Virus record (IMG/VR): IMGVR_UViG_3300004213_000422 | Coordinates: 7,043 to 71,042 of that record | Strand: one strand, 5' to 3' | DNA length: 64,000 nt | Origin: a virus | Taxonomy: Duplodnaviria; Caudoviricetes | Shown: one piece after another, positions 6,776 through 63,999 of the stretch | How positions within the stretch are numbered: the first letter of the stretch is position 1 | Layout: each line of letters begins with the position of its first letter | Notes under the pieces: generated by a model | Seen by the model: only the letters and a program-made list of their open reading frames with translations | The model's database searches: none | Told to the model about the DNA's origin: nothing | Made by a program: the position numbers and the translations under genes

Positions 6776-7123
6776 ATGGCCGCTTCCACGCAGAACACCG
6801 CTCCGGTCAGCGGTGCGGTCAAGACCAGCACCCCGGCGACGGGCGGCGACCTGAAGCAGCAGGAGGTCACGGTCGGCGGCTCCGCCCCAAAGGGCGAGAA
6901 CGGCGAACCCGCCTCCGACGTCGAGAAGCAGCGTCTGCACGAGGCGAACGCGGCCGGCGACGTCGGCCAGGGCGACGGCTCCGATGCGCTCGGCAGCGGC
7001 GCCATCATCGAAGAGGGCGTGCGTACCGCCATCGACTTCGAACACCCGGCCGTGGACAACCGTCCGCGCTTCGGGCTGCCGGAGCACAGCAACCGCATCG
7101 ACTTCAACGACCCCTACGCCTGA
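6776..7123 (+). CDS. Hypothetical protein, possibly head-associated
   Basis: GGAGG RBS, high-GC codon usage, position after capsid. Confidence 0.7.
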   Translation: MAASTQNTAPVSGAVKTSTPATGGDLKQQEVTVGGSAPKGENGEPASDVEKQRLHEANAAGDVGQGDGSDALGSGAIIEEGVRTAIDFEHPAVDNRPRFGLPEHSNRIDFNDPYA

Positions 7124-7189: not shown

Positions 7190-8521
7190 ATGACGTCACG
7201 CTATGGCCGCCGCATCGTCATCGACACGGCGGATGCTTTCATTCCTGGGCATCAGGGGGGGGAGGCAGTCCAATACCCAGCCAATCTCCTCAAGGGCGCA
7301 AACAGTCGCTTCCCGCGAGTGGCGGTTTTCGGGGACAGCATCACGTCCCCGATAAATAGCTACGGCTACTGGATGTGGATGCGATTCTTCCTGCGGCACC
7401 GTATCTATCTTCCGGAGAGCCATAACTTCGGCGTCGCTGGGAATACGACAGCCCAGATGATCGAGCGCCTTGATGGCGTTCTCGCCGTTCAGCCGGATAT
7501 TGTCGTCTTTCTCGGCGGAACGAACGACATCAGCGGCGGTTCATCGGCGGCCACACTCGATAATTACCGTGTTATCTTCTCGCGCATTCTGCAATCTGGC
7601 GCGCAGATTGTCGTTGTTCCTGTCCTTCCTCGCGTTGGCGGACAAATGTGGGGAGTTTCCGGACTTAATTCATTCCTTTTCCAGTATTGCTTGATGACGC
7701 CAGGAATGTTCTACGTCTCGGGCCTTTCCGGGATGTTAACTGATTCGACAGGCGCCCTCCTGCCGAATTATTATCAGGCGGACGGCTTGCATCCCGCTCC
7801 GGCGGGAGCGTGCGAAATAGGTCGCGCCATTGCGAAGACGATGGCCGTCTTGATTGATCCGATTGAGACTGCCCTGGACTATGTCGTCCAGGATCAGTGG
7901 CACGGTAGCTATGCCCCCTACGGCAACCTTCTCGCCAACCCATCCCTAACTGGCACTGGAGGAAGTGTCGGGGCGCCCTCAACGGGAGCGGTCGCGACTG
8001 GGTGGGGGCACTCCGGCGGAGGCGGAGGCGGAGGCGTTACAGGTTCGTTGGTACTGAGCCAGCAGGCCGCCCAGGATTCATCGGGCGATTGGCAGGTCAT
8101 GACCTTGACCAACCGTGGATTCGCGAATGCATCGGACAGCCACAGCCTATCTCAAAGCGTGCCCTACTCCCTCGGGAAGTATGCCGCAGGAGATTCCGTC
8201 GTGGCCTCCATCGAGGTCGATGTTTCAGACAACGTCGGCTTGTATGGCTTCACACTGAATATGACGGAGCAGGCGGGGTCAGGGACCACGAATGCCGTAA
8301 AGCGTGATCTCCGCATTACGTCTTTCGCTCAGCTTGGATCGACCAAGGCGATGACTGGTCTCTTGAAGACTGAACCTTTGGTTATTCGGCAGCCGTCCGG
8401 CTCCGGAGTGCAGCAGCTTGACTTCAACTTCACCTATGTGCCGAACGGCACTTATCCGGGTGGGGCCAACATGACCATCAAGGTGCGGCGACCTTCTCTG
8501 CGAAAGGTGGTCACGGCCTGA
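7190..8521 (+). CDS. SGNH/GDSL hydrolase (esterase) with C-terminal beta-rich domain
   Basis: FGDSIT, GVAGNTT, LGGTND, DGLHP blocks all present; more A/T-ending codons than neighbours. Confidence 0.88.
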   Translation: MTSRYGRRIVIDTADAFIPGHQGGEAVQYPANLLKGANSRFPRVAVFGDSITSPINSYGYWMWMRFFLRHRIYLPESHNFGVAGNTTAQMIERLDGVLAVQPDIVVFLGGTNDISGGSSAATLDNYRVIFSRILQSGAQIVVVPVLPRVGGQMWGVSGLNSFLFQYCLMTPGMFYVSGLSGMLTDSTGALLPNYYQADGLHPAPAGACEIGRAIAKTMAVLIDPIETALDYVVQDQWHGSYAPYGNLLANPSLTGTGGSVGAPSTGAVATGWGHSGGGGGGGVTGSLVLSQQAAQDSSGDWQVMTLTNRGFANASDSHSLSQSVPYSLGKYAAGDSVVASIEVDVSDNVGLYGFTLNMTEQAGSGTTNAVKRDLRITSFAQLGSTKAMTGLLKTEPLVIRQPSGSGVQQLDFNFTYVPNGTYPGGANMTIKVRRPSLRKVVTA

Positions 8522-38186: not shown

Positions 38187-38271
38187 TGGTGGGTAGGGTA
38201 GGAATCGAACCTACAAGCCGTTAGGCGACCGCTTTACAGGCGGCTGATTTAGCCAGTTTACCATCCTACCC
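38187..38271 (-). tRNA. tRNA-Tyr(GUA)
   Basis: Minus strand GGGTAGG...GCCGC-CTGTAAA-GCGGT...GTAGGTTCGATTCCTAC-CCTACCC-ACCA; long variable arm. Confidence 0.95.
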
Positions 38272-38743: not shown

Positions 38744-40204
38744 TTAGACCTCCTCCTCAGTCTCGCCGGCCGCACTGCCGGTCTCGCCTGTGATGGCGTT
38801 CGCCAGGAAGCGGACCACATTGCCGGACCAGCCGTCGATGCGAACCACCGGGCCCTGGAAGTTCACGCCGCGCTGGTAGGGCGCGACGTTGATCACGAAC
38901 AGCGACACGCCCGGCCAAGTCACGGTGTCATGCGACTGCTCGTCAGTGATGACGACGACGCGGTCCGGCGGCGAGGAGCCGAAGAACTGCATTAGCGCCG
39001 CCAGCGCCTTTCCCAGGTAGGTGCCGCTGTGAAGCTGCGAGCCCACTAGGTCATTCGCCAGCGCCACCCCGCGAGAGGACGGCTCATCCATGACCATCAC
39101 CTGATCCGAGAAGGTGGCCATGGTGCCGAACTCGCAGCGCTCGCGGAGAACGACTGCAAGCCCGGTCGCCGCATCGAAGCGCTTCATTTCACCCTGGCCG
39201 GAAAGAGTCTCGCTCATGGAGTAGGACACATCCACCAACACGAGCGTGCGGCCGGGCAGCATCGGTAGCGCGCCGCACGAGCGGAGCATCAGCGCGTCGA
39301 GGTCGTGGGTGTAGCTAGGCGCGTGCCGGGCAGCCGCCAGCGCCTGCCACGGCCACACGTCAGCCGCCTTGACCCTCTCCATCGCACCCTTCACCAGTGC
39401 GGGAGAGACGCCGACCTGCTCCATGTTGCGGAGGTTCCGCACAAGCGCCAGGGCGCCCAGCTTCCTCTCCGCAAGCAGGCCCTCCCACACCGCGCGCTTG
39501 TCGGCGCCCGGCACGGAAAGCTGACTCTCCCAGGTGTCTGGCGCGCGGATGGTGTCGTCGGCCAGGGCCTTCCACACCGCCGTGCGGGTGTCGAACACGA
39601 CCTGCTGCTCCTCGTCCGGCTTGGCTAGAAGCACTTCGTCCGTCGTCAGCGCCGGGTCCGGGTGCGCCAGGAACATGAGGTCGCGCAGGCGCACGGCCAC
39701 CTTGTCCTTCAGCGTCCCGTACTTCTGAAGCTGGTAGTTGCTCCAGCGACCGAAGCCGTCGCGGATCGCGGCCTTCATGCAATGCGGCAGCGGCGCGCGA
39801 GTCTTCCCAGCCGGCGCGGGGTTCCGGGCCAAGTACATGGCGACCATGTCCATCGCGTCCTTGGGGAGCCGCAGGACCGTCTCCGCCGCCTCGCGCACGA
39901 ACGCGCGGCCGTCCGGGCGCGAGGCCAGGAGGACCAGCAGGAAGACCGGCGTGTGGCGCAGCCCGAGATCGCGGCGCGCGCGGATCGCGAGGTTGGCGAT
40001 GAAGGTGGGGTCCACCTTGGCGGCAACGGTCACGATCTGGCTCTCGATGTCCGCGCCATCGACGTAGAAGGTCTTCTCGCCAAGCAGGGCGCACGACACC
40101 AGCCGCTCCAGTTCCGTCGCCGGGCTGAAGGTCTGGGTGGCGCCAGCCTCATGGATGGGAGGCAGGATGCCAGACACAGAAGTACGCACGTTCATGCGGG
40201 ACAT
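38744..40204 (-). CDS. rsr: Ro60/Rsr TROVE-domain protein with C-terminal vWA domain
   Basis: HEAGA, ELERLVSCALLGEKTFY, RLRDLMFLAHP, TWESQLS, ALVRNLRN, DVSYSM MIDAS, VITDEQ; ATG 40204 with GGAG RBS. Confidence 0.93.
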   Translation of the reverse strand: MSRMNVRTSVSGILPPIHEAGATQTFSPATELERLVSCALLGEKTFYVDGADIESQIVTVAAKVDPTFIANLAIRARRDLGLRHTPVFLLVLLASRPDGRAFVREAAETVLRLPKDAMDMVAMYLARNPAPAGKTRAPLPHCMKAAIRDGFGRWSNYQLQKYGTLKDKVAVRLRDLMFLAHPDPALTTDEVLLAKPDEEQQVVFDTRTAVWKALADDTIRAPDTWESQLSVPGADKRAVWEGLLAERKLGALALVRNLRNMEQVGVSPALVKGAMERVKAADVWPWQALAAARHAPSYTHDLDALMLRSCGALPMLPGRTLVLVDVSYSMSETLSGQGEMKRFDAATGLAVVLRERCEFGTMATFSDQVMVMDEPSSRGVALANDLVGSQLHSGTYLGKALAALMQFFGSSPPDRVVVITDEQSHDTVTWPGVSLFVINVAPYQRGVNFQGPVVRIDGWSGNVVRFLANAITGETGSAAGETEEEV

Positions 40205-40230
40205 GGAGAAAACTCCGGGTTGCCAGGAGG

Positions 40231-40314
40231 GGTGAACGGCGGCCTGGAACAGAACGGCCACGGGGTTTCTTCATGCGGATGAACCCGTGACCTACACCAA
40301 GGCAGCCGCTCGCC
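40231..40314 (-). ncRNA. Minimal Y-RNA-like RNA upstream of rsr
   Basis: 15-bp terminal stem with two mismatches; UGGUGUAGGUCACGG / CCGUGG..CUGUUCC motif. Confidence 0.7.
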
Positions 40315-40389: not shown

Positions 40390-40465
40390 TGGTGCTGGCA
40401 CGAGGAATCGAACCCCGGACCCGCTACTTACAAGGTAGCCGCTCTACCAACTGAGCTACGCCAGC
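40390..40465 (-). tRNA. tRNA-Thr(UGU)
   Basis: GCTGGCG-TA-GCTCAGTTGGTAGAGC-G-GCTAC-CTTGTAA-GTAGC...GGTTCGATTCC...ACCA. Confidence 0.96.
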
Positions 40466-49614: not shown

Positions 49615-52600
49615 ATGATGGCCGCCACCGCAATGGCGAGCTACTACACGCAAGCCGGCGTGGTGACAGAGCAGGACCACCTTCGGCTTGCCGAGTATTA
49701 CGGTCGCGGGCACGGGGCTGAGGAGGCGATCTCCGCCGGCCTTGGTTGCGTTCCGACCGCGCGCGTGGACATGGACCCGGAGCTTGCGGCTGCACTCGGC
49801 CTGAAGGCGGGCGCGGCCATCAGCGAGAAAGAGGTCGCGAATATCCTGGCGGGACTGCGCGCGGACGGCACGGCCCTGCCGGTGGCGCACGCGTCGGCAC
49901 GGCGGATGGGCGGCGAGAACGGGACCGGCCACCGCATCGCCTATGCGGACCTCTGCCTGTCGGCCCCGAAGGGCGCGAGCATTGCCTATGCGTTCGCGGA
50001 GACCAACGCGGAGAAGCATTCGATCCTCCAGGCCATCCGCGACGCGGAGCGCGAGACCCTGACCTACATCGAAGCCCAGGTGGGGCGGGCGAACCGGGGC
50101 GGCGGGCGCAGTGGCGCTGAGGAGTCCGCCCGCATGGGGTGGATCGGCTTCACGCACTTCACGTCGCGACCGACCGTGGAACTGGTCAATGCCGCCGGGG
50201 ACACGGAGCTTCATCATGTGCCGGTCGCTGGCGACATGAACATCCACACCCACTACATCGTCCCGAACCTCGTGCGCACGGAAAGCGGGCGGCTGGTGGC
50301 GATGAACCGCGACCTCATGGACCACCGCATCAAGGAGTTCGGCGCGGTCTATCAGGCCTTCGTGTCACGCAACCTCCGGGCCATCGGGATCGACGTGGGC
50401 CTGGACGAGAAGAAGCGGCTGGCCTTCCTGCCGGCGATCCCGGAGCACGTCGTGAAGGCCTTCTCCCGCCGCTCCAGCGAGGGCGAGGAGGGGGCCCGCA
50501 TGTTCGCTGCATCGGAGGGGAAGGACTGGGACGCGCTGGACCCCGCCGCCCGCAGCGCCTTCATCAAGACCGCGACCCAGTCCGCCCGGCTGGCCAAGGG
50601 GACCGCCCCTGGCGACGGCGGCATGGCGGAGTGGCGGCGGCGCGCGGAGGCGCTGGGCTGGAAGCACAGGACCGCCATCACCCTGCCCCGCCACGGCCTG
50701 CCGGAGCCGTCCAGGGAGGCGCGAATGCAGGCCTCCTCCAGGGTGGCCCAGGGGGTGCTGGCGGAGGAGCTTGAGCAGCGCGCGGTGGTCTGGGGATCGG
50801 ACGCCCGGCACGCGGCGGCGGTCGGCCTGATCGCGGGTGGGATCGAGAGCGCGCGCGACATCGACGCCATCACCCGCGACATGCGGGAGAACGGCGTCCA
50901 CCACCACGGCCAGCAGACGACGGTGATCTGGCGCGAGTTCAAGCCGGGCAAGACGAAGCTGACCACAGCCCTGCACGAGAGCCAGGAGCGGGAGCTTATC
51001 GCCCTGGTGCGGGAGGCGCGGGAGGATCGGGCGGCGGACCTGCCCCAGGCTGCCCTGGAGGCGGCTGTGGGGCACCTGAGCGTCAAGGGAGGGGTGGACT
51101 TCACCAGCGCCCATGGGCAGGCCCAGAAGGCTTCTGCGGGCGTCCTGGCGGCCTCTGGGCGGTGGGGGCTGATGCTGGGCTCCGCTGGGGTGGGCAAGAC
51201 GTCCCTGGCGGCTCCCCTGGTGGCTGCGCGGCTGGATGCCGGGTGGGAGGTTTGGGGAGCGGCGCTCTCCTGGCGGCAGGCGAGGGCGCTGCGAGACACG
51301 GGGATCGAGGCCGGGAACCTCCGGGCCCTCCAGCCCTTCCTGCGTGCGGTGCAGGAGGGGCGCGTGGTCCTGGGCCCGAAGTCGGAGGTCTGGCTGGACG
51401 AGGTCTCCCAGGTCGGCACCCATCAGCTTCTCACCCTGGCGCGGCTCCAGAAGCAGCACGGCTTCAGCGTCCGCATCCTGGGCGACGACAAGCAGGCGCA
51501 GAGCATTGAAGCCGGGCCGGTGATCGAACTGATGCGCCGCGCCCTGGGCGAGGAGGCCATCCCCTCCATCCACACGACGATACGTCAAGCGACGGAAAGG
51601 GAGCGGGAGATCGCCGGCCTGTTCCGAGAGGGCAAGGCGGCGGAGGCCCTGAAGCTGAAGCTGGAGGACGGCACGGCCGCGATGGTGCCGGGCGGTTACG
51701 GCGAGGCGGTGGCGGCGGTGGCGCAGCGCTGGGCGGAGCGGACGGCGGCCATGGCCGGCATGTCGCGCTGGAGCATCACGGTCTCGGCGCCGACGAATGC
51801 GGCGGCCCACGACGTCTCCTCCGCCATCCGGGCGGCCAAGATCGCGCGGGGCGACATCCAGGCGCTGGGGGAGCGGCGGGTGGAGGCGGCGGACGCGCAG
51901 GGGGATGTGCGGACCCTCACCCTGGCGCCGGGCGACCGCGTGCGGCTGTTCGCCCGGACGCGGGGCGTGTTCGAGGGCGAGGATGGTCGGAAGCACTCCG
52001 CCGTGGTGGGCGACAACGGCAGCGTTCTGGAGGTCCGGCGGGCGGGCGGCGACGGGCTGGTCCTCCGGACGGACGCCGGCAAGCAGGCATTCGTCTCGTG
52101 GGACGCGCTCCGGCCACGCGAGGGCGGTGCGATCCGTCTGGCCTACGGCGACTGTCTGACCATCGACAGTGCCCAGGGCATCACCAGCGATGAGCACATC
52201 ATGGCCCTGCCCGCCGGCTCCAGGCAGGTCCAGGGCTTCAAGGCCTATGTGGCAGCCTCGCGCCACCGGGCGCACTCCTGGCTGATCACCAGCGAGGGGG
52301 CGGAGCTACGCGAGGTCGTGGAGCGGCGGCCGGCTGGAGTGGAGGAGGAACCCAGCAAGGCGGACCTCTGGGCCAACGTCTCGCGCAACCTGAGCAAGCA
52401 AGACCTGAAGGAGTCCGCCATCGGCTTCCTTGAGCAAGCGGCCAAGCAGGCGAACGCAGCGGCGCACACGCTCCAGGCTGCGGCCAGGGTGAAGGAGTCC
52501 TTTCGTGGCGTGACCAAGGCGGCGCGGCAAAGGGTTGTGGCGCGGCAGATCGCGCGGCACATTGAGCGCGTGGCGGACACATTGGGAGAGCGCGTGAGCC

Positions 52601-53643
52601 AGACAGCGGAGCGTCCCCGGATGACCAAGCGGTACGAGGTCAGCGAGAGCGAGGCCCAGGTCCAGTTCATGGATGCCGCGCGCGCCTTCGGTCTCCGGCC
52701 AAAGTCCATCATCATGGATGGCGAATACCATAGCGCTCCCCTGGAGGGTCAGAAGGGAAAGCAGTCCGGCGGCTACCGGGCGATGCTGGAGGGCATCCGC
52801 CCCACGATCATCCTCTTCAACCAGAAGACGAAAGAGAAGGCGACCTTCAGCGCGAACGGCGAGATCAAGGCTGTGTCGCCGGAGGAAGCTGCGGCGGCGC
52901 GCGCGAGGGCGGAAGAGAGCGCGCGGGCCGTGGAGCAGAAGCGTATCGAGAAGGAAGCCGATGGCGCCGCCCGCGCCGCAGCCTTGTGGCAGGGTGGCCG
53001 CCCGGCGGACCCGCAGCACCCGTATCTGGTGAAGAAGGCTGTGGAGCCGCACGGGCTGCGCCAGGACACCTACAAAGGGCAGGAGCGATTGCTGGTCCCG
53101 CTCCGCGACATCAGCGGCAAGCTATGGAACGTCCAGACCATCGAGCCTGACGGGACGAAGCTGTATCTGGCCGGCGCCCGGAAGCAGGGGGTCTATTACA
53201 CCCTGGGGGCACCGCATCGCATGGGCGAGCCGGTCGGCATCGCGGAGGGCTTCGCCACCGCCGCCACGATCCGGCAGGCCACCGGCATGACCGTCGTGGT
53301 GGCGCTGGACTCAGGCAACCTGCCCGTGGTCGCCAACGCCCTCCACAAGCGCGAGCCGGCCCGGCCGCTGGTGGTCTTCGCGGACAACGACGGCTCGCTT
53401 CCGCTCCGCACTCCGCCCCTGCCAAACGTGGGTCTGGAGAAGGCCCAGGAGGCGGCGCAGGATGTCGGCGGGAAGGTCGTGGCGCCTCCGTTCAATCCGG
53501 AGTGGAAGGACACGGACTGGAACGACCACCATGCCCGCCACGGCCTGGAGAAGACGAAGCTGGCGCTCCGGGCAGCTTGGCGCGAGAGTGAGGCCGCGCG
53601 ACCTGCGCAGAAGCCGGCACAGAAACCTGGGATGAGGATGTGA
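49615..53643 (+). CDS. MOBF (TrwC-type) relaxase fused to RecD-like helicase and C-terminal Toprim primase
   Basis: YY pairs; DLCLSAPKGAS; DMNIHTH; GSAGVGKT, LDEVSQ, GDDKQ, TIDSAQG; HPYL, LLVPLRD, IAEGFATA, FADND, TDWND. Confidence 0.92.
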   Translation: MMAATAMASYYTQAGVVTEQDHLRLAEYYGRGHGAEEAISAGLGCVPTARVDMDPELAAALGLKAGAAISEKEVANILAGLRADGTALPVAHASARRMGGENGTGHRIAYADLCLSAPKGASIAYAFAETNAEKHSILQAIRDAERETLTYIEAQVGRANRGGGRSGAEESARMGWIGFTHFTSRPTVELVNAAGDTELHHVPVAGDMNIHTHYIVPNLVRTESGRLVAMNRDLMDHRIKEFGAVYQAFVSRNLRAIGIDVGLDEKKRLAFLPAIPEHVVKAFSRRSSEGEEGARMFAASEGKDWDALDPAARSAFIKTATQSARLAKGTAPGDGGMAEWRRRAEALGWKHRTAITLPRHGLPEPSREARMQASSRVAQGVLAEELEQRAVVWGSDARHAAAVGLIAGGIESARDIDAITRDMRENGVHHHGQQTTVIWREFKPGKTKLTTALHESQERELIALVREAREDRAADLPQAALEAAVGHLSVKGGVDFTSAHGQAQKASAGVLAASGRWGLMLGSAGVGKTSLAAPLVAARLDAGWEVWGAALSWRQARALRDTGIEAGNLRALQPFLRAVQEGRVVLGPKSEVWLDEVSQVGTHQLLTLARLQKQHGFSVRILGDDKQAQSIEAGPVIELMRRALGEEAIPSIHTTIRQATEREREIAGLFREGKAAEALKLKLEDGTAAMVPGGYGEAVAAVAQRWAERTAAMAGMSRWSITVSAPTNAAAHDVSSAIRAAKIARGDIQALGERRVEAADAQGDVRTLTLAPGDRVRLFARTRGVFEGEDGRKHSAVVGDNGSVLEVRRAGGDGLVLRTDAGKQAFVSWDALRPREGGAIRLAYGDCLTIDSAQGITSDEHIMALPAGSRQVQGFKAYVAASRHRAHSWLITSEGAELREVVERRPAGVEEEPSKADLWANVSRNLSKQDLKESAIGFLEQAAKQANAAAHTLQAAARVKESFRGVTKAARQRVVARQIARHIERVADTLGERVSQTAERPRMTKRYEVSESEAQVQFMDAARAFGLRPKSIIMDGEYHSAPLEGQKGKQSGGYRAMLEGIRPTIILFNQKTKEKATFSANGEIKAVSPEEAAAARARAEESARAVEQKRIEKEADGAARAAALWQGGRPADPQHPYLVKKAVEPHGLRQDTYKGQERLLVPLRDISGKLWNVQTIEPDGTKLYLAGARKQGVYYTLGAPHRMGEPVGIAEGFATAATIRQATGMTVVVALDSGNLPVVANALHKREPARPLVVFADNDGSLPLRTPPLPNVGLEKAQEAAQDVGGKVVAPPFNPEWKDTDWNDHHARHGLEKTKLALRAAWRESEAARPAQKPAQKPGMRM

Positions 53644-56329: not shown

Positions 56330-56929
56330 TCACGCACGCCTCCGCACGGCAGCCAGTCCAAGCAGCCCCAGCCCGAACAGCGCGGCGGAGGCAGGCTCTG
56401 GCACCGTCGTGACGGTGGACATGCTGGTGCCACCGGAGACCTCGCAGCGGGCCCAGAAGCATCCGGTCTGGCCCATGTCGCTGCCCATGCTGCCGCTAAA
56501 CCCCAGGCCGCCGAAGGTCAGGAAGAAGTCGGTCTCGGAGTCGTTGATCGAAGCCTCCCCGGTCAGGCCGGCGCCGTCGCCGCTCAGCTTGAAGCCGAAG
56601 CGGTCGATGCTGCTGGCGCCGTCCAGGCGCGCGAGGTCGAAGCTGCGGAAGGTCTCGCCATCCAGCAGGATCGTGAAGCTGATCTCGGAAAGCCAGGGGA
56701 TGTCCCGGACGGGCATGCCACCGGCACCGGAGTAGTAGTCCAGCGAGAAGCCGGACGCGGCGCCGTCCTCCAGGGCGATGCGCCCCAGAATGGAGACGCG
56801 GCCTGGGCCAGGATCACCCGGCCCTGCCCAGCCTGTGGAGGGGCCTTCCTGGGCGAACTGGTAGATGATGCCGGCTGAGGCTGGCGGGGCGGCCAGCAAG
56901 GCTGCGGCGAGGGCGAGAGAGCGGATCAT
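56330..56929 (-). CDS. PEP-CTERM (exosortase-target) surface protein
   Basis: Signal peptide; C-terminal VPEPASAALFGLGLLGLAAVRRRA. Confidence 0.9.
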   Translation of the reverse strand: MIRSLALAAALLAAPPASAGIIYQFAQEGPSTGWAGPGDPGPGRVSILGRIALEDGAASGFSLDYYSGAGGMPVRDIPWLSEISFTILLDGETFRSFDLARLDGASSIDRFGFKLSGDGAGLTGEASINDSETDFFLTFGGLGFSGSMGSDMGQTGCFWARCEVSGGTSMSTVTTVPEPASAALFGLGLLGLAAVRRRA

Positions 56930-58058: not shown

Positions 58059-58901
58059 ATGACCGAGGACACATTCCAGCCGCCGCATGGCAGGGGCCTG
58101 CGCTGGGGCCAGGAGGACCGGCGCGACCGGGCCCTCTACAAGACAATCCCGAACGTGGACCTCCTGCCCGCCACAGCCACAGCGACGGGCATCAGGGACC
58201 GTCTGCCGCCTCCGATGGACCAGGGGCCTATCGGGGCGTGCGTCGGCTACGGCACGGCCCAGAACGCCTTCGCCGCCATGGCCAAGGATGGCCGCCGCCG
58301 CCCCTTCATTCCATCCCCCGTCGCGCTCTACCTCTGGGCGCGCGAGGAGGGCGGATACCCGCAGGAGGACGCGGGCGCGGAAATCCGCAACGCCTTCAAG
58401 ATGGTCAATCGGTACGGCCTTCCCGCCATGTCAAACCTGAAGCCGCGTTTCGAGCCGCGCGACCTTCCCGATCCGGAGACGTGGCTGTTTCCTCAGACAT
58501 CCATCTGGATACGGTCGATCAGCCCCAGCAACATGGCGGACGCGGAGCGGCGACAGGTCGTCAGCTATCGCAAACTCCCGCTGCTGGCTGACATGCTCCA
58601 ATGCCTCGCTGACGGTCGCCCGGTGTGCTTCGGCTTCACCATGTTCCGGAGCTTCTACGACGCATACGGCAATGCGCGTAAGATCATCCCAATGCCCCGC
58701 AACGGAGAGCGGGATTTCGGTGGGCACTGCGTCAACGCCATCGACTACGACAAGCCAGCCCGGCTGATCTGGTGCAGGAATCAATGGGGCGAGGAGGCGC
58801 ACGAGGGCGGCCCCGACTTCGCTCTGCCCTTCGATTTCGTTGCGGCCTACGCCAGTGATGCCTGGGTGACGGAGAGCGTCGAAGGAGCGCCGGCTGCGTA
58901 G
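58059..58901 (+). CDS. Papain-like (C1A) cysteine peptidase
   Basis: DQGPIGACVG (Gln/Cys), GGHCV (His), RNQWG (Asn). Confidence 0.9.
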   Translation: MTEDTFQPPHGRGLRWGQEDRRDRALYKTIPNVDLLPATATATGIRDRLPPPMDQGPIGACVGYGTAQNAFAAMAKDGRRRPFIPSPVALYLWAREEGGYPQEDAGAEIRNAFKMVNRYGLPAMSNLKPRFEPRDLPDPETWLFPQTSIWIRSISPSNMADAERRQVVSYRKLPLLADMLQCLADGRPVCFGFTMFRSFYDAYGNARKIIPMPRNGERDFGGHCVNAIDYDKPARLIWCRNQWGEEAHEGGPDFALPFDFVAAYASDAWVTESVEGAPAA

Positions 58902-58911
58902 ACAGCGAAAA

Positions 58912-58939
58912 GGGGCAGCCGCTTCAGGTCGGCTGCCCC
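58912..58939. terminator. Hairpin between convergent peptidase and PurA-like genes
   Basis: GGGGCAGCCG-CTTCAGGT-CGGCTGCCCC. Confidence 0.65.
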
Positions 58940-58962
58940 CACTCGGCTCGCTTCAGGGTAAT

Positions 58963-60201
58963 TCAGGGTAGTGTAGAGCAGACAGAACGCGCATGCGCGG
59001 CGTGAGTTGCAAGCTCCGTCACGTCGTTCCGCGTGGGGCCCTCGCTGACGTAGCGGACCGGCAATCCAAGGTGTTGCTCCAGCCAGTCCAGCAGTTGCCC
59101 CGTAGTAATCCGATGGATCGCGCCTCCCAGCCAGACCAACGCCTCCCCCTTCAGCATCAGCGCGTCTCCCTTCATCTGGTCCATGCAGGTCACGGCCAGG
59201 GCCGCATTCACCTTGATGCTCGGATAGTCATCGGCCTGGGCAATGTCTTTCCAGATGGCCGCGCGCAACAGGTCAAGGTTGAGGGCCCCGAAGCGCAACG
59301 TGCCCTGCCAGGGGTTCGGCTGGTTCGTGGGGTCCGGGTAGGAGAGGTCTGGCGTCTCCCCCGGCATCGGCCCGGCTCCATGCCGCGTGGCGTAGGCGCG
59401 CGTCACATAGACGACGTCTAGCTCGCGGATGGCGTTCTCCTGCGCGATCTTCAGGACGTTGGTCAGCCCCGTGCTGGAGTGCGTGACGTGCGGGAAGAAC
59501 TCGTGGTTCTGATCCAGCAGCAGGCCCTGGGCACCTTCGAAGACGAAGCTGGCTGTGCTGTCCACATGCTGGTCGCTCAGCCCGTTGCTATTCAGCGCCA
59601 TGTCCCGGCAGGCGCTGATGAAGGCGCGCTCCAGGGCCGCGTTGAAGAAACGGTCCTCCCAATCCCCCCGAGGCCACACGCCCTCTTCCTTGAAGCGGCG
59701 AGGCAGCCAGTTGATCAGAATTGCCCCCAGCTTCTCGCGAGGCTCGCCCTTGATCAGGTCACCGTAGGTGATGGGGAAATGCTCGTGCCGAAGCATCGTC
59801 TCGTGGATGCCAGCACCGCAGCTACCATGCCGACTGCCACCGCGCGACGACTCCAGAAACTGGTTCAGCAGCATGTCGTAATGCGTGGTGACGGGCGCGC
59901 GGTAATCAATCGAGAGGTCGGTGTTGCCGTCGATGGCGCGGAGCCTCGCGCGCTCCTCCTGCCAGACCAGTGGGTTGACCAGAAAGAACCGGCTCAGATG
60001 CGTGGAAGCGGACGCCAGGGAGCCGCTACCGAAGTGGCTGAAGACGTGCCGATCCCCGTGCGGCGTCACCACCGTGTGCCCTGCCTGCGCGCCTCCGTTG
60101 AAGCGCACCACGACGCCTCCAGGCTTGCTCAGGTAGTCGGTCATTAACCCTTTTCCCTCGTCACCCCATCCAGCACCGATCACCACGGTTGCGCGCGTCA
60201 T
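58963..60201 (-). CDS. purA: Divergent adenylosuccinate synthetase-like ligase
   Basis: GWGDEGKG, RFNGGAQAGHT, FEGAQGLLLD, PHVT, YATRHGAGP, SEGP. Confidence 0.9.
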   Translation of the reverse strand: MTRATVVIGAGWGDEGKGLMTDYLSKPGGVVVRFNGGAQAGHTVVTPHGDRHVFSHFGSGSLASASTHLSRFFLVNPLVWQEERARLRAIDGNTDLSIDYRAPVTTHYDMLLNQFLESSRGGSRHGSCGAGIHETMLRHEHFPITYGDLIKGEPREKLGAILINWLPRRFKEEGVWPRGDWEDRFFNAALERAFISACRDMALNSNGLSDQHVDSTASFVFEGAQGLLLDQNHEFFPHVTHSSTGLTNVLKIAQENAIRELDVVYVTRAYATRHGAGPMPGETPDLSYPDPTNQPNPWQGTLRFGALNLDLLRAAIWKDIAQADDYPSIKVNAALAVTCMDQMKGDALMLKGEALVWLGGAIHRITTGQLLDWLEQHLGLPVRYVSEGPTRNDVTELATHAAHARSVCSTLP

Positions 60202-60359
60202 CAGTTGCCATCCTTCGGATCAGGGCGGCGGAAATACATCCTTCCTTCCGACACAGCGAATGGCTGCCAGCCTTCGGCCAGTAGAGCCCGGTAGCTCACA
60301 CTTCCGATTCGCGCGTCCTCAACCTGCCACCGGCATCCATCCCAATCCATCGTCCTCAT
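60201..60359 (-). CDS. Small 52-aa protein coupled to the PurA-like gene
   Basis: MRTMDWDGCRWQVEDARIG...PKDGN*, TGATG overlap with purA; below the ORF-track threshold. Confidence 0.5.
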   Translation of the reverse strand: MRTMDWDGCRWQVEDARIGSVSYRALLAEGWQPFAVSEGRMYFRRPDPKDGN

Positions 60360-60413
60360 CCTCGTCCTCAGGTTGCAGATAGGCGGGGCGCGCTCTCACG
60401 CGCCCCATCCCAA

Positions 60414-61349
60414 TCAGAAGTCGGTCAGCGCCGTCCCGGCGGCTCCGGACGTCGCGGCCGGCACCAGCCCGCTCACGGCGCGGCTGACCACCAGGGAGGT
60501 ATCGCCACCCCAGGACTTCGCCACGGCCGCGACGCTCTCACCTTCGGTGACCTGCATGGCGGAAACCACGATCTCCGCCAGCTTCGTGTGGTCCGACATC
60601 CGGATCACGCGCTGACCGAGAATGGCGTTCCAGCTACGCACGACGTGGTCGGCGCCCGCCTGACGGCAGTAGTCGCCCTCCTCCGCCACGATGTGGAAGG
60701 TGTGCCAGTTGCGCTGGACCATATCCAGCAATTGCTGGGTGGTCAGGTCGGTCCACTGGCCGGGGCCGAAGACCTTCTCAAACTCCGACGCGCGCACGAC
60801 CTTCGGGCATTCCTCATCGCCCACAGTGAAGAGGTAGCCCTTCTTCCCGCGCTTCTCGATGGCGTCCGCCGAGACCTTCATCGCAGCGAAGTACCAGGGG
60901 AGCGTGTAGGACTCGCTGTGGTTCCCGCCTCCGCCGCCCTCGATATGCAGGCTGATAAGCTGCTCAGCGAGACGAATGTCCGCCTCGAATTGGCTGACCT
61001 GCAACGGGGAGCGGTCATAGGCGACGTCACCGATGCCCATGAACATGATGTGCGGATCGGTGACCGGCTTGCGGTCATAGATCGCCTCGAACAGCACCTT
61101 CATGCCGCTGTTGGCGATGGTGTGTGAGAGACTGCCCATGCTGCCGGTGACGTCCAGGCCGACGATGACCGGCGTGGACTGCGGGTTCGCCGCACTATCG
61201 CGGCTCTCGCGAACCGCGATGTCCTTCGGGTCCAGGGCCGAAGTCATGGCCCTCGCCGTGAACGCGCTGCTGATCGGCGCGGTGCCGCCCTTCGTCGCGC
61301 TGCGCGTGAAGGAAGCGAAGTCGGTTGCGTCGAAACGTGATCCACCCAT
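60414..61349 (-). CDS. vWA-domain protein
   Basis: GLDVTGSMG MIDAS, GIGD, EGGGGG..ESY, GYLFTVGDE; ATG 61349. Confidence 0.85.
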   Translation of the reverse strand: MGGSRFDATDFASFTRSATKGGTAPISSAFTARAMTSALDPKDIAVRESRDSAANPQSTPVIVGLDVTGSMGSLSHTIANSGMKVLFEAIYDRKPVTDPHIMFMGIGDVAYDRSPLQVSQFEADIRLAEQLISLHIEGGGGGNHSESYTLPWYFAAMKVSADAIEKRGKKGYLFTVGDEECPKVVRASEFEKVFGPGQWTDLTTQQLLDMVQRNWHTFHIVAEEGDYCRQAGADHVVRSWNAILGQRVIRMSDHTKLAEIVVSAMQVTEGESVAAVAKSWGGDTSLVVSRAVSGLVPAATSGAAGTALTDF

Positions 61350-61354
61350 GGGGG

Positions 61355-62389
61355 TCAGCCTCCGTAAATGTCGCTTGGTGTGATGGCCAGTTCGATGAAG
61401 CGACGAGCACCGAATGAGGCCTGAAGGACGGAGGCCCAGTGCCGGTATTCGGCAATGGCGTCTCCGCCACTCGCAAGCCGCAGCCAATCGGCCATCGGCT
61501 TGGGAATGCTGCTATCGGCTGGCAGGCGCATGCCGGACGGGTCGCCCAGCAGTTCGCGGCCCAGAAGCCGAACGAGAGTGAGGTCGGTCGCGGGGCTGGA
61601 GACCTTGCTGGCCAGCACCGCTCCTGGCGCGTTCCGCACCGTCCTGGCGGCTTGCTTGCGGGCCATGCGCTCCCCCACCCTGGAAGCGTGCCACCAGCCA
61701 CCCACGACGCTGGTGGAGTGCTGGCGCGGGTTAATGAAGACCGTGTCCAGCGACAGGTCGTTGTGGGTAAGCCTCAGCACGCCCAGCACGCATGCCCAGT
61801 GCATCAGGTCGGACATGACCCAGGCGACATGGCGGGGATCGAGCTTGCCGCCGACGTGCTCCAGCAGGTCCCGCGCCCGGACGCTCTCCGGGTCGCGCTT
61901 GAGCACCATCAGGATGTGATCCTGCACGGGCGTCAGGGCCACCACCTTCGGGATGCGGGTGTCCATGATCCTGGCCAGCTTCTCGTCCGGGATGATCATG
62001 TCGCTCAGGATCATCGCCGCGCTGTCCATGAGGTCGGCGCAGTCAGGCGCCGCCGCGTAGCTCACCATGGAGGTCCCGATGTAGCCCGGCCCCACTCCCG
62101 CATCGAACTCGCGGAAGTAGCGGACGCGCTTCTCGCGCCCGTCCTTGCCGGTGAAGACCGCCAGTCCAGGCACCTTCCACGAGCCCTTGGCGACGCGGTC
62201 CTTCGCGGCCTGCCAAAGCACGTTCACATGGGCGAAGACGTCGCCGTCTCCACCGCGATCCGGGTGCCAGCGCTTGGCCAGCGCCTTGAACTCGCCCGCG
62301 ACCGCATCAGGGCCGGAGAACAGCCGCTCAGGCTGATCTGCGGGTATGGCCAGCAAGCCCGGACCGTCCAGGGTGTCAGCGTTCGGCAA
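61355..62389 (-). CDS. J-domain + kinase-like (probably pseudokinase) fusion
   Basis: LAKRWHPDRGG (HPD motif); THNDLSLDTVFIN catalytic-loop-like segment; TTG start with GGAGG. Confidence 0.7.
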   Translation of the reverse strand: MPNADTLDGPGLLAIPADQPERLFSGPDAVAGEFKALAKRWHPDRGGDGDVFAHVNVLWQAAKDRVAKGSWKVPGLAVFTGKDGREKRVRYFREFDAGVGPGYIGTSMVSYAAAPDCADLMDSAAMILSDMIIPDEKLARIMDTRIPKVVALTPVQDHILMVLKRDPESVRARDLLEHVGGKLDPRHVAWVMSDLMHWACVLGVLRLTHNDLSLDTVFINPRQHSTSVVGGWWHASRVGERMARKQAARTVRNAPGAVLASKVSSPATDLTLVRLLGRELLGDPSGMRLPADSSIPKPMADWLRLASGGDAIAEYRHWASVLQASFGARRFIELAITPSDIYGG

Positions 62390-62472
62390 GTCTGTCCTCC
62401 GTCCTCGTGGCGGCCCTGGCGTCTTTCCCTCGCCGGGCCTGTTGCAGGCTAGATCACCAAGCCCCCAGCCGT

Positions 62473-62757
62473 CTAATCCGGCGGAGGGATGATCTCCCAC
62501 TGATCCGTCAGGCAGCGGACCCGGTTCTGCCAGCGATCTCCGGCAAGGCGGCGCTTCACCCAGACCCAGGGCTTGCGGTATCCCGGCTGGAAGACGATCC
62601 GCAGTACCTGCCCCTCGTGGCCGGACACTTCCTTGACCACGTCCCCAAGGCTGACCCCGAAGTCTTCCTTCGCGCGCAGCGCCACGAGCCCCGCCCGCGC
62701 CATGTCCAGGCGCCGCTCAAGCTCCTCGACCTCCGCCTCCAACGCCTTCCGGTCCAT
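62473..62757 (-). CDS. Hypothetical protein
   Basis: Coupled small ORF. Confidence 0.55.
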   Translation of the reverse strand: MDRKALEAEVEELERRLDMARAGLVALRAKEDFGVSLGDVVKEVSGHEGQVLRIVFQPGYRKPWVWVKRRLAGDRWQNRVRCLTDQWEIIPPPD

Positions 62758-62987
62758 CAGCCGACCCCTTGTCCTTGCCGGGCTGGGCTCGCCTGGGCCC
62801 CGTGCTCCGATGCCGTCTTCAAATCCCGCGCCTGCTCCAGCCGGAGGAGGGAGGCGGTGCGCTGGTAGCCGGCCGCCTGAGCCCGTTCCGCCGTCTTCCG
62901 CCAGAACTCCGCCGCGACCTCGTAGCGCCCGTTCTCGCGTGCCCTGCGCGCCTCCTGGGCACTCTGGCGGACCTCCTCCAGGGTCAT
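62757..62987 (-). CDS. Hypothetical helical protein
   Basis: Coupled small ORF. Confidence 0.55.
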   Translation of the reverse strand: MTLEEVRQSAQEARRARENGRYEVAAEFWRKTAERAQAAGYQRTASLLRLEQARDLKTASEHGAQASPARQGQGVG

Positions 62988-63187
62988 TCGCCCGTGACCG
63001 CCTTGATGGCGTTGCGGAGGTCGTCCATCCGCTCCAGTATTGGCCGCTCGCCGCCGGTCGTGTGCTGCTTGTGCAGGTCCACCAGGGCCCGCTGCGCCGC
63101 CTCCAGCAGGAGCTTGCCGGGGCTTGGCGGCCGTGGCTCGCTCCGGTGGTTCATCAGCGCGTCAAGCGAAGCGTGCAGATCAGGCAC
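62984..63187 (-). CDS. Hypothetical protein
   Basis: GGAGG RBS, overlap with the next gene. Confidence 0.55.
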   Translation of the reverse strand: MPDLHASLDALMNHRSEPRPPSPGKLLLEAAQRALVDLHKQHTTGGERPILERMDDLRNAIKAVTGE

Positions 63188-63276
63188 TCAGTCCTCCGTC
63201 TCGGGCGTCCCTGCCCTGCCTGAAGGTTACGCGCGACCCGCGCACCGATCAAGCCTTTATGCGCAGATAGGCAAAA

Positions 63277-63999
63277 CTAAGCCGTGACGTTGTAGGTCTT
63301 GGCCACGAACCCCTTGCCGGCGTCGCCGCGCTCGAACTGAGACACCCACCAACGCTTTCCGGAGCAAACCGTGCAGCGGTAGGACAGGTCTGGGTGGTCG
63401 CTCGTGGGGTCCGGCTCCATGGCGTGGACACAGCCGCGCGCCGTCGCTTCGCGGTACGTCACATCGCGTCGATAGTGCCCTCGGACCTCGTGCCGACGAA
63501 GGCCTGCTTCCACACCCCGAGTCATTCCGATGCGGCGCAGCACCGGAGTGGGATCGACGTCGATGGTGACCACGTTGTGCGCGGCGTAAGGGCGTTGCTT
63601 GTTGCCTATCCATCCGCGAGTCAGTGGACGGTCATGAATGTATCGGGTCACGCCTTGTCGGTTCATCAGAAGCAGGATCGTAATGATGTTCCGCAGGTCG
63701 CCGGCAGAACCAGAGAAGAGGGTTAGCCATTTATCCGCCCCAACCCGGTCCATGTCTGAGACGGGCGGAAGAACGACTGAGTGCGATGCGCGAAGCGCCC
63801 GACGATCCTCAGAATCTTCATCGGAGAGGTTCACGACTGCTTGGTAGGCATCATCCACCGTCCCGCCCGTGGGAATCCAGCGCTCCAGACTGCTTCCCCA
63901 AAGAAAGGCATCCAGTTGGCTTCTCGTGGTGCCCAACAACCTGCACGTCCGAAGCTGGCTCTCAATGCTCCAGGGCTGATGCAGCTTGTAGGCGACGGG
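63277..63999 (-). CDS. Hypothetical phage protein, 5' end beyond the window
   Basis: Frame stays open to the window edge; C-terminal RRHEVRGHYRR...C.H...CTVC motif. Confidence 0.65.
   Translation of the reverse strand, partial: PVAYKLHQPWSIESQLRTCRLLGTTRSQLDAFLWGSSLERWIPTGGTVDDAYQAVVNLSDEDSEDRRALRASHSVVLPPVSDMDRVGADKWLTLFSGSAGDLRNIITILLLMNRQGVTRYIHDRPLTRGWIGNKQRPYAAHNVVTIDVDPTPVLRRIGMTRGVEAGLRRHEVRGHYRRDVTYREATARGCVHAMEPDPTSDHPDLSYRCTVCSGKRWWVSQFERGDAGKGFVAKTYNVTA

Follow-up and report, generated by a model that had tools for sequence, protein, structure and literature searches.

A vWA protein and a PurA-like enzyme encoded side by side in phages and bacteria, with an optional J-domain pseudokinase

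The three-gene locus

We examined a 64,000-nucleotide (nt) stretch of phage DNA, called the window throughout (positions 7,043 to 71,042 of IMG/VR record IMGVR_UViG_3300004213_000422), in which three minus-strand genes between 58963 and 62389 encode a kinase-fold protein with a DnaJ-type J domain, a protein with a von Willebrand factor type A (vWA) fold, and a relative of PurA, the adenylosuccinate synthase. The vWA and PurA-like genes form a pair that recurs in both phages and bacterial chromosomes, and the PurA-like enzyme, judged by its residues, has lost aspartate binding while the residues of phosphotransfer are kept. An earlier sequence-only reading had described tightly linked genes on the minus strand here, and three intact genes do occupy exactly this span, as the last of ~13 consecutive co-directional minus-strand genes. 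The J-domain pseudokinase gene (61355..62389; 344 amino acids, aa) has a TTG start at 62389 and a GGAGGA Shine-Dalgarno sequence. The vWA gene (60414..61349; 311 aa) begins with an ATG at 61349, 5 nt past the upstream stop, and its product starts with MGGSRFDATDF. The third gene (58963..60201; 412 aa) encodes the putative PurA-like ligase, as identified by Pfam PF00709, PHROG 1211 and a residue map.

The source is a siphovirus-like tailed phage of ~65% G+C with genes for a large terminase, a portal and a major head protein and for five tRNAs. The IMG/VR contig is 71 kb long and by estimate ~59% complete. An identical PurA-like gene and protein are found on a 120-kb ENA contig, on which an independent gene caller placed the same three genes with the same lengths (344, 311 and 412 aa).

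The PurA-like enzyme

Pfam PF00709 (Adenylsucc_synt) covers only residues 6-283 of the PurA-like protein (E 1.6e-45; profile positions 1-276 of 416), and solved bacterial PurA structures match its N-terminal ~280 residues (E ~1e-25). PHROG 1211 is a full-length match (6e-63), and the archaeal-type model NF003295 matches residues 210-398. Structures of PurZ, the phage PurA relative, are reached at E 6e-4 only. The scores against curated models lie below the cut-off in each case: 127.9 bits against 402 for the NCBIfam purA equivalog NF002223, 116.5 against 395.6 for TIGR00184, and 47.8 against 300 for the PurZ model NF038379.

For the residue map, 229 family members were aligned with six canonical PurA sequences and numbered after E. 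coli PurA. The P-loop GDEGKG (60148..60165, minus strand) keeps the catalytic Asp and Lys, and the window enzyme has D14, K17, H42 and Q225 for the catalytic D13, K16, H41 and Q224 of E. coli. Across the family D13, K16 and H41 are each kept in 229/229 and Q224 in 226/229, and T239 (224/229) and the guanine-binding D333 (211/229) are kept nearly as often. Further motifs in the window enzyme are GGAQAGHT, RHGSCGAG in place of GTTGRG, and VTCMDQ in place of TKLD, so that the motifs previously quoted from this gene (GDEGKG, GHT, a rebuilt loop, GSC and TCMD) are all present in the translation.

The aspartate site is altered throughout. The rebuilt loop DPTNQPNPWQGTLR (59293..59334, minus strand) replaces the aspartate-binding loop (TTGRRR in E. 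coli; TTGRxR canonically), and in the window enzyme R131 has become A, T301 has become Q, R303 is deleted and R305 has become L. The family shows the same pattern, with R131 hydrophobic, T301 replaced by Q in 226/229, R303 deleted in 229/229 and R305 replaced by L, F, I or M; the loop is shortened in the family, to an extent that differs between the two alignments. The contacts to the IMP 5'-phosphate are changed as well: N38 is Q in 224/229, T129 is C in 200/229 and R143, which in PurA comes from the other subunit, is absent, so that T239 alone is kept. Elsewhere in the pocket S240 has become R, H or W, V273 has become H, and position 331 (K in PurA) is C or H. New invariant or near-invariant pocket residues have also appeared, namely the RH before GSCG, a TN..N..Q.. 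pattern and H274.

Longer forms of the enzyme were examined for fused partners (Rosetta stones): most are intein insertions and two are fusions to the vWA protein. The intein-bearing homologues (P0123-P0131 and P0134; ~760-840 aa, from public metagenomes) carry Intein_splicing and LAGLIDADG domains at a site between the catalytic His and the next Thr (profile position 42/43). Inteins tend to sit at functionally critical sites, and this position therefore fits a functional active site. The extra regions of P0128 and P0135 gave no Pfam match.

In five bacterial genomes the PurA-like paralogue (137-216 bits) stands beside a canonical purA (585-635 bits). In a quick tree, the branch between canonical PurA and the PurA-like family measures 2.26 substitutions per site, and its support in the Shimodaira-Hasegawa-like approximate likelihood ratio test (SH-aLRT) is 100%. 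The statement of the sequence-only reading that the enzyme is not PurZ holds, given the retained catalytic Asp and the low PurZ score. Because the aspartate and IMP-phosphate features are missing and the scores lie under the curated thresholds, the enzyme is, on its residues, neither PurA nor PurZ: aspartate binding is lost and the phosphotransfer residues are kept. The same residue pattern marks it as re-tooled, not degraded.

The vWA protein and its N-terminus

The vWA protein has no Pfam family match; PHROG 2971, of unknown function, matches it at 1.2e-42. A profile of the family found nothing significant in the PDB, and the fold was seen only through an AlphaFold 2 (AF2) model, which was built on 45 homologues and has a predicted local distance difference test score (pLDDT) of 90.9. 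Foldseek matched this model to vWA and integrin I domains (E 1e-5, probability 1.0), and VIA-align superposed it on integrin beta I-like domains with Z 16.4 and a root-mean-square deviation of 2.6 Å over 189 residues. NorD/NorQ and ArnB (of the ArnAB complex) are among the fold matches. The metal ion-dependent adhesion site (MIDAS) motif, DVTGS (61140..61154, minus strand), belongs to a set of residues (D, T, G, S and M) that is invariant in 45 homologues, and the protein is predicted to bind a metal through it.

The N-terminal peptide, M-G-x-G-R-W/F-D-x-x-D-Y/W/F (61314..61349, minus strand), is conserved. M-G is found 45-110 residues before the MIDAS in 152 of the 153 MIDAS-bearing homologues and is the first codon of the longest open reading frame (ORF) in 115 of those 152. 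Public gene calls start with MG in 142 of 150 independent representatives of 50%-identity clusters, and in most of the eight others the gene call plainly has a wrong start or is cut short. Next comes a linker of low conservation, and the start Met lies 31-65 aa from the RES (RESRDS) motif. Methionine aminopeptidase cleaves a Met that precedes Gly; the mature vWA protein should therefore expose a free Gly alpha-amine. In PurA the nucleophile is the alpha-amine of aspartate. With the family's loop shortened and stripped of arginines, the tethered N-terminal Gly of the vWA protein is therefore a plausible replacement nucleophile.

The J-domain pseudokinase

A family profile of the first protein matched DnaJ J domains (E 9e-9) and Aurora kinase (3e-7), and the AF2 model (pLDDT 95) has DnaJB1-PKA chimeras as its top Foldseek matches. 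PHROG 3043, 'kinase', also matches (1.4e-6), and the single sequence stays below the threshold of Pfam PF00226. The J domain (62174..62350, minus strand) contains the HPD motif in KRWHPDRGGD, of which H and P are nearly invariant in 34 homologues and through which it would recruit DnaK. The kinase-fold domain (61355..62167, minus strand) reads HND and GGWW where kinases have HRD and DFG, and the family consensus reads HNA and LLGGWW. The protein is accordingly classed as a pseudokinase on these two motifs. An H.D motif with no recognisable DFG had been noted for this domain, and both hold for the window protein; however, family members in general do not share this Asp. Taken with the models above, the J domain, the kinase fold and the MIDAS-bearing vWA fold that had been proposed from the letters are all borne out.

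Gene pairing, fusions and distribution

Matches to the enzyme came from 319 viral contigs, from at least 593 bacterial species and from at least 525 metagenome contigs, and the reciprocal search with the vWA family gave at least 560 viral contigs. We fetched 160 loci for neighborhood analysis, ~155 of which had room for an upstream vWA gene. In all but three of these ~155 loci a vWA gene immediately precedes the PurA-like gene on its strand, and reciprocally a PurA-like gene lies downstream of the vWA gene in 71 of the 73 loci with room. Adjacency is thus ~97% in either search direction, a linkage far beyond chance. The gap between the two genes is typically 0-60 nt and often 0-20 nt, or the genes overlap. 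A J-pseudokinase gene lies upstream of the vWA gene in ~55% of loci. The three genes therefore co-occur elsewhere, and the conserved core is the vWA and PurA-like pair, with the J-pseudokinase an optional member. Chaperone control, which the sequence-only reading had put forward, would accordingly be optional too, since only about half of the loci have the J-pseudokinase.

Two bacterial chromosomes encode the pair as a single protein (P0132, 776 aa, L340:5001-7331; P0133, 936 aa, L341:5001-7811). In both fusions the vWA part is N-terminal and keeps its MG start and the PurA-like part is C-terminal, and the P0133 gene is preceded by a gene for a kinase-fold protein (Pkinase match). Because of these natural fusions and the near-universal adjacency, the vWA protein and the enzyme very likely form a physical complex.

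The module is equally common in bacterial chromosomes and in phages. Its bacterial carriers include Proteobacteria, Clostridia, Actinomycetes, Chloroflexi, Planctomycetes, Myxococcota and groups of the Candidate Phyla Radiation (CPR), and its phage carriers include mycobacteriophages, Vibrio phages, Rhizobium phages and the 120-kb siphovirus-like phage. An exhaustive profile search with the vWA family gave 1,062 clusters at 50% identity (E <= 1e-30). The same cassette is present in Mycobacterium phage Sebata as gp260-263, annotated as 'kinase', hypothetical, a small ORF and 'PurA-like', and, again annotated piecemeal, in Rhizobium phage Y65 (gp018-019) and Vibrio phage Va1 (038-039). Database names for the enzyme family are 'adenylosuccinate synthase' and '2-aminooxy adenylosuccinate synthetase'. 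A full-text literature search found no description of a module of vWA protein, PurA-like enzyme and J-pseudokinase, and a survey paper on jumbo phages does not mention it.

NrtR and the NAD context

All-against-all clustering of the ORFs in the 160 loci left NrtR/Nudix as the sole further conserved neighbor; the remaining large clusters are antisense shadow ORFs. In a Chlorobi metagenome-assembled genome (L007:9229-9900) a Metallophos phosphoesterase gene follows the module, and it is not a conserved neighbor elsewhere. A regulator of the NrtR type (Nudix domain plus NrtR winged helix) adjoins the module in 48 of 80 bacterial loci, usually in divergent orientation to the module operon. NrtR proteins are reportedly Nudix-related, ADP-ribose-responsive repressors of NAD metabolism (as Rodionov et al. 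are said to have described in 2008). Operator-like palindromes of the form TGTTATTTGCAAATAACA, in many cases as tandem copies, are found in the NrtR/module intergenic regions of proteobacterial loci (L098, L090, L095, L096, L109, L117 and L149), ~100-200 nt upstream of the operon. NAMPT and NMNAT-Nudix genes adjoin the module in nine viral loci, in Rhizobium phages and on a 549-kb phage contig.

That the module is no rarer in bacterial chromosomes than in phages, and lies beside NrtR in the former, argues for a link to NAD or ADP-ribose metabolism. It also argues against a modified base in virion DNA, one of the products that had been suggested for this enzyme.

Other features of the operon and the window

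The spacer between the vWA and PurA-like genes measures 213 nt and is absent from most related loci. It contains a GC-rich hairpin, GGGGCGCG-N6-CGCGCCCC (60383..60404, minus strand), which lies directly after the vWA stop and has a perfect 8-bp stem and no T-run. The terminator scan did not call it; a role in RNA stability or in attenuation between the two genes is possible. The spacer also holds a doubtful 52-aa ORF (60201..60359, minus strand), the stop of which overlaps the ATG of the PurA-like gene (TGATG). We rejected this ORF as a fourth component on its weak codon bias (G+C at third codon positions of 0.64, vs. ~0.82 in neighboring genes) and its lack of conservation. It has no homologue across the 160 related loci and no similarity to Sebata gp262, which holds the same position, and the independent gene caller left it uncalled on the ENA contig. 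Promoter and terminator scans of 58700-63300 found none, and the operon genes upstream of the module yielded no informative family. A known defence system was considered and rejected, as PADLOC models match none of the four ORFs at the locus.

Several other genes of the window deserve mention. A single 1342-aa ORF (49615-53643, plus strand) carries a TrwC relaxase, an AAA_30 helicase and a Toprim primase domain. A 505-aa protein (38744-40261, minus strand) matches PHROG 850, 'RNA-binding protein', and is flanked on the same strand by genes for tRNA-Tyr and tRNA-Thr (38187-38271 and 40390-40465). Among the head genes, a 443-aa protein (7190-8521, plus strand) matches PHROG 6102, 'lipase', with E 1e-45. 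A 2478-aa ORF probably encodes the tape-measure protein. A 199-aa ORF (56330-56929, minus strand) has a weak PEP-CTERM match (PF07589) on the ENA copy, which suggests a host with an exosortase system.

Proposed mechanism and alternatives

The reading that we favor, with confidence that falls a little short of even, is that the enzyme is an active, GTP-dependent PurA-type ligase. It would couple some amine, but not aspartate, to a 6-oxopurine nucleotide and would function in obligate association with the vWA protein, and the J-pseudokinase would recruit DnaK where it is present. In the scheme that we infer for catalysis, for both substrates, for the complex, for DnaK and for the biological role, the enzyme would use GTP to phosphorylate a purine nucleotide, an IMP-like lactam, on its 6-oxo group, a first half-reaction like that of PurA, and the amine would then displace the phosphate. 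The vWA protein would present the nucleophile or hold a substrate at its metal site; in the version that we prefer, the nucleophile would be the protein's own free N-terminal Gly on its flexible tether. The J-pseudokinase would act as a non-catalytic adaptor that brings in host DnaK for assembly, resetting or release of the complex. The bacterial module would be turned on through the ADP-ribose sensor NrtR, i.e. during NAD breakdown or ADP-ribose build-up, and the phage copy would be expressed from the phage operon with no NrtR control. The phage module probably manipulates the nucleotide or NAD-stress state of the host or counters a defence. In its most specific form the proposal would be an 'N-terminal purinylation', in which the GTP-activated C6 of IMP or a related 6-oxopurine is joined to the N-terminal Gly of the vWA protein as an N6-linked, adenylate-like tag. 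The tagged protein, on which DnaK would act through the J-pseudokinase, would in turn serve as effector or signal in a response to ADP-ribose/NAD stress that phages have captured. We regard this complete version as unlikely, albeit worth stating.

Several observations weigh against the favored reading or parts of it. The changed 5'-phosphate contacts mean that the acceptor may be something other than IMP. The J-pseudokinase is missing in ~45% of loci, and DnaK therefore cannot be essential to the chemistry. An analysis of covariation (mutual information with average product correction; 240 vWA/PurA-like pairs, effective number of sequences, Meff, 199) gave no signal between the N-terminus and the pocket; clade effects dominate it, the top covarying pairs being clade-defining columns, and it speaks neither for nor against such a link. 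In the AF2 model, residues 1-20 of the vWA protein have a pLDDT of ~80 with a helix at 9-19, and the N-terminus, instead of being free, may in part pack against the domain to which it belongs. Finally, the 71-kb phage record holds no NrtR, Nudix or NAMPT gene and the window no NrtR-type palindrome. NrtR control of the phage copy is thus ruled out for the sequence examined, and for this phage the NAD link therefore comes by homology to other loci only.

The strongest competitor, possible though clearly less likely than the favored reading, is that what the enzyme couples to the purine nucleotide is a small free amine, be it ammonia, a polyamine or an amino acid that is not Asp. The reaction would yield a modified nucleotide or amount to a direct amination of IMP to AMP. 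The vWA protein and the J-pseudokinase would then be only an activase or regulator, like the MoxR-vWA pairs that service Rubisco or NorB. The evidence from the enzyme residues applies equally to this alternative, and NrtR control suits a metabolic enzyme. vWA proteins are classic adaptors of chaperone ATPases; with NorD/NorQ and ArnB among the fold matches, the J domain would stand in for MoxR via DnaK. However, a small amine leaves the near-invariant Met-Gly of the vWA protein unexplained, and it does not account for a vWA protein that is near-constant while the chaperone-recruiting part is often missing. No glutaminase or amine-supplying gene was found among the conserved neighbors.

It is rather improbable that the PurA-like protein has given up ligation to become a regulatory GTPase, i.e. 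a nucleotide-binding switch or sensor in a chaperone machine of vWA and J proteins. The heavily rebuilt substrate half, with Pfam coverage ending at residue 283, would fit such a role, as would the chaperone-like partner proteins. However, the catalytic base, acid and Gln are kept in 226-229 of 229 members, new invariant residues line the pocket, as is usual when an enzyme stays active but changes its substrate, and in several homologues an intein sits at the catalytic His.

A further alternative, which we consider slightly less probable again, is NAD re-synthesis by a route beyond NARP1-3: the enzyme would use GTP to place a phosphate on the anomeric hydroxyl of ADP-ribose, and NAD+ would form in one step when nicotinamide takes the place of that phosphate. 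This would follow the order of PurA chemistry, in which an oxygen is phosphorylated and a nitrogen then attacks, and the genomic setting is in its favor, with NrtR as the usual bacterial neighbor and NAMPT and NMNAT-Nudix genes flanking the module in Rhizobium phages and on the jumbo-phage contig. The rebuilt pocket also gains an aromatic residue (W, F or Y) and several basic ones. The proposal is nevertheless pure inference; D13, H41 and Q224 are suited to a purine lactam, the vWA protein and its N-terminal Gly are left unexplained, and the examined phage sequence has no other NAD gene. The NARP1-3 papers mention no such enzyme, and NARP3 is a PnuC/NadR pair unrelated to the module.

An ordinary auxiliary PurA for AMP synthesis, or a PurZ-type enzyme for 2-aminoadenine or another virion-DNA base, agrees with the database names and the PHROG 1211 match but is so improbable that we treat it as ruled out by residues and curated thresholds, since all aspartate-binding residues are lost, the scores fall far under the cut-offs, a kept Asp with a lost loop is the reverse of PurZ, PurZ structures match only at E 6e-4 against 1e-25 for PurA, and the module is frequent in chromosomes that own a real purA.

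Significance

The PurA superfamily belongs to textbook purine metabolism, and to our knowledge PurZ, which led to the Z-genome pathway, is the sole known re-tooled relative of PurA. The PurA-like family described here would be a second re-tooled branch, and one much larger than PurZ. Its reaction, once worked out, would be a new nucleotide-ligase chemistry and possibly a new protein modification, and the module would probably add a player to the NAD-centered arms race between phages and bacteria. The labels 'adenylosuccinate synthase' and '2-aminooxy adenylosuccinate synthetase' on thousands of database entries would also have to be corrected.

Comparison with known systems

The closest known enzyme is PurA itself (EC 6.3.4.4; structures 1ADE, 1KJX and 1CG4), with which the module enzyme shares the fold, GDEGKG, Asp13, Lys16, His41, Gln224, Thr239 and Asp333. 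It differs from PurA by the loss of R131, T301, R303 and R305 and by changes at N38, T129 and R143, and also in being a second paralogue beside a real purA with a vWA partner encoded alongside. PurZ of phages phiVC8 and S-2L (6FM1) is comparable as a PurA homologue that phages carry and that has changed its use of substrates, and the module enzyme shares with PurZ and archaeal PurA a shortened C-terminal half. In PurZ, Ser replaces the catalytic Asp13 and the aspartate loop is kept (PMC8342488). The module enzyme is the opposite, with the Asp kept and the aspartate loop lost. No datZ or mazZ was seen among the neighbors scanned with PHROG and Pfam models on this record, which represents ~59% of the phage genome.

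MoxR-vWA pairs (NorQ-NorD, CbbQ-CbbO, CoxD-CoxE and RavA-ViaA) likewise encode a MIDAS-bearing vWA protein together with a chaperone activity and an enzyme, and by analogy the vWA protein of the module presumably bridges the two. However, the invariant partner in the module is the PurA-like enzyme and not a chaperone, and chaperone power would come from DnaK via the J domain; an AAA+ ATPase of the MoxR type is absent among the conserved neighbors of the 160 loci and from the window operon. In the TerY-P triad, which Anantharaman, Iyer and Aravind reportedly described in 2012 as joining vWA and Ser/Thr kinase signalling and whose work PMC7824862 cites, and in archaeal ArnB with ArnC/D, a vWA protein is encoded beside a eukaryote-type kinase fold, as it is here. 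The kinase of the module differs from both in lacking the HRD and DFG aspartates and in being fused to a J domain, and no PP2C phosphatase or FHA partner is among the conserved neighbors of the 160 loci. The bacterial loci resemble NrtR regulons in having an NrtR gene and palindromic boxes in a shared promoter region, but the module genes are not known genes of NAD biosynthesis or salvage. The surrounding system has no described counterpart in the literature searched, and the enzyme at its core is a re-tooled enzyme of the PurA kind.

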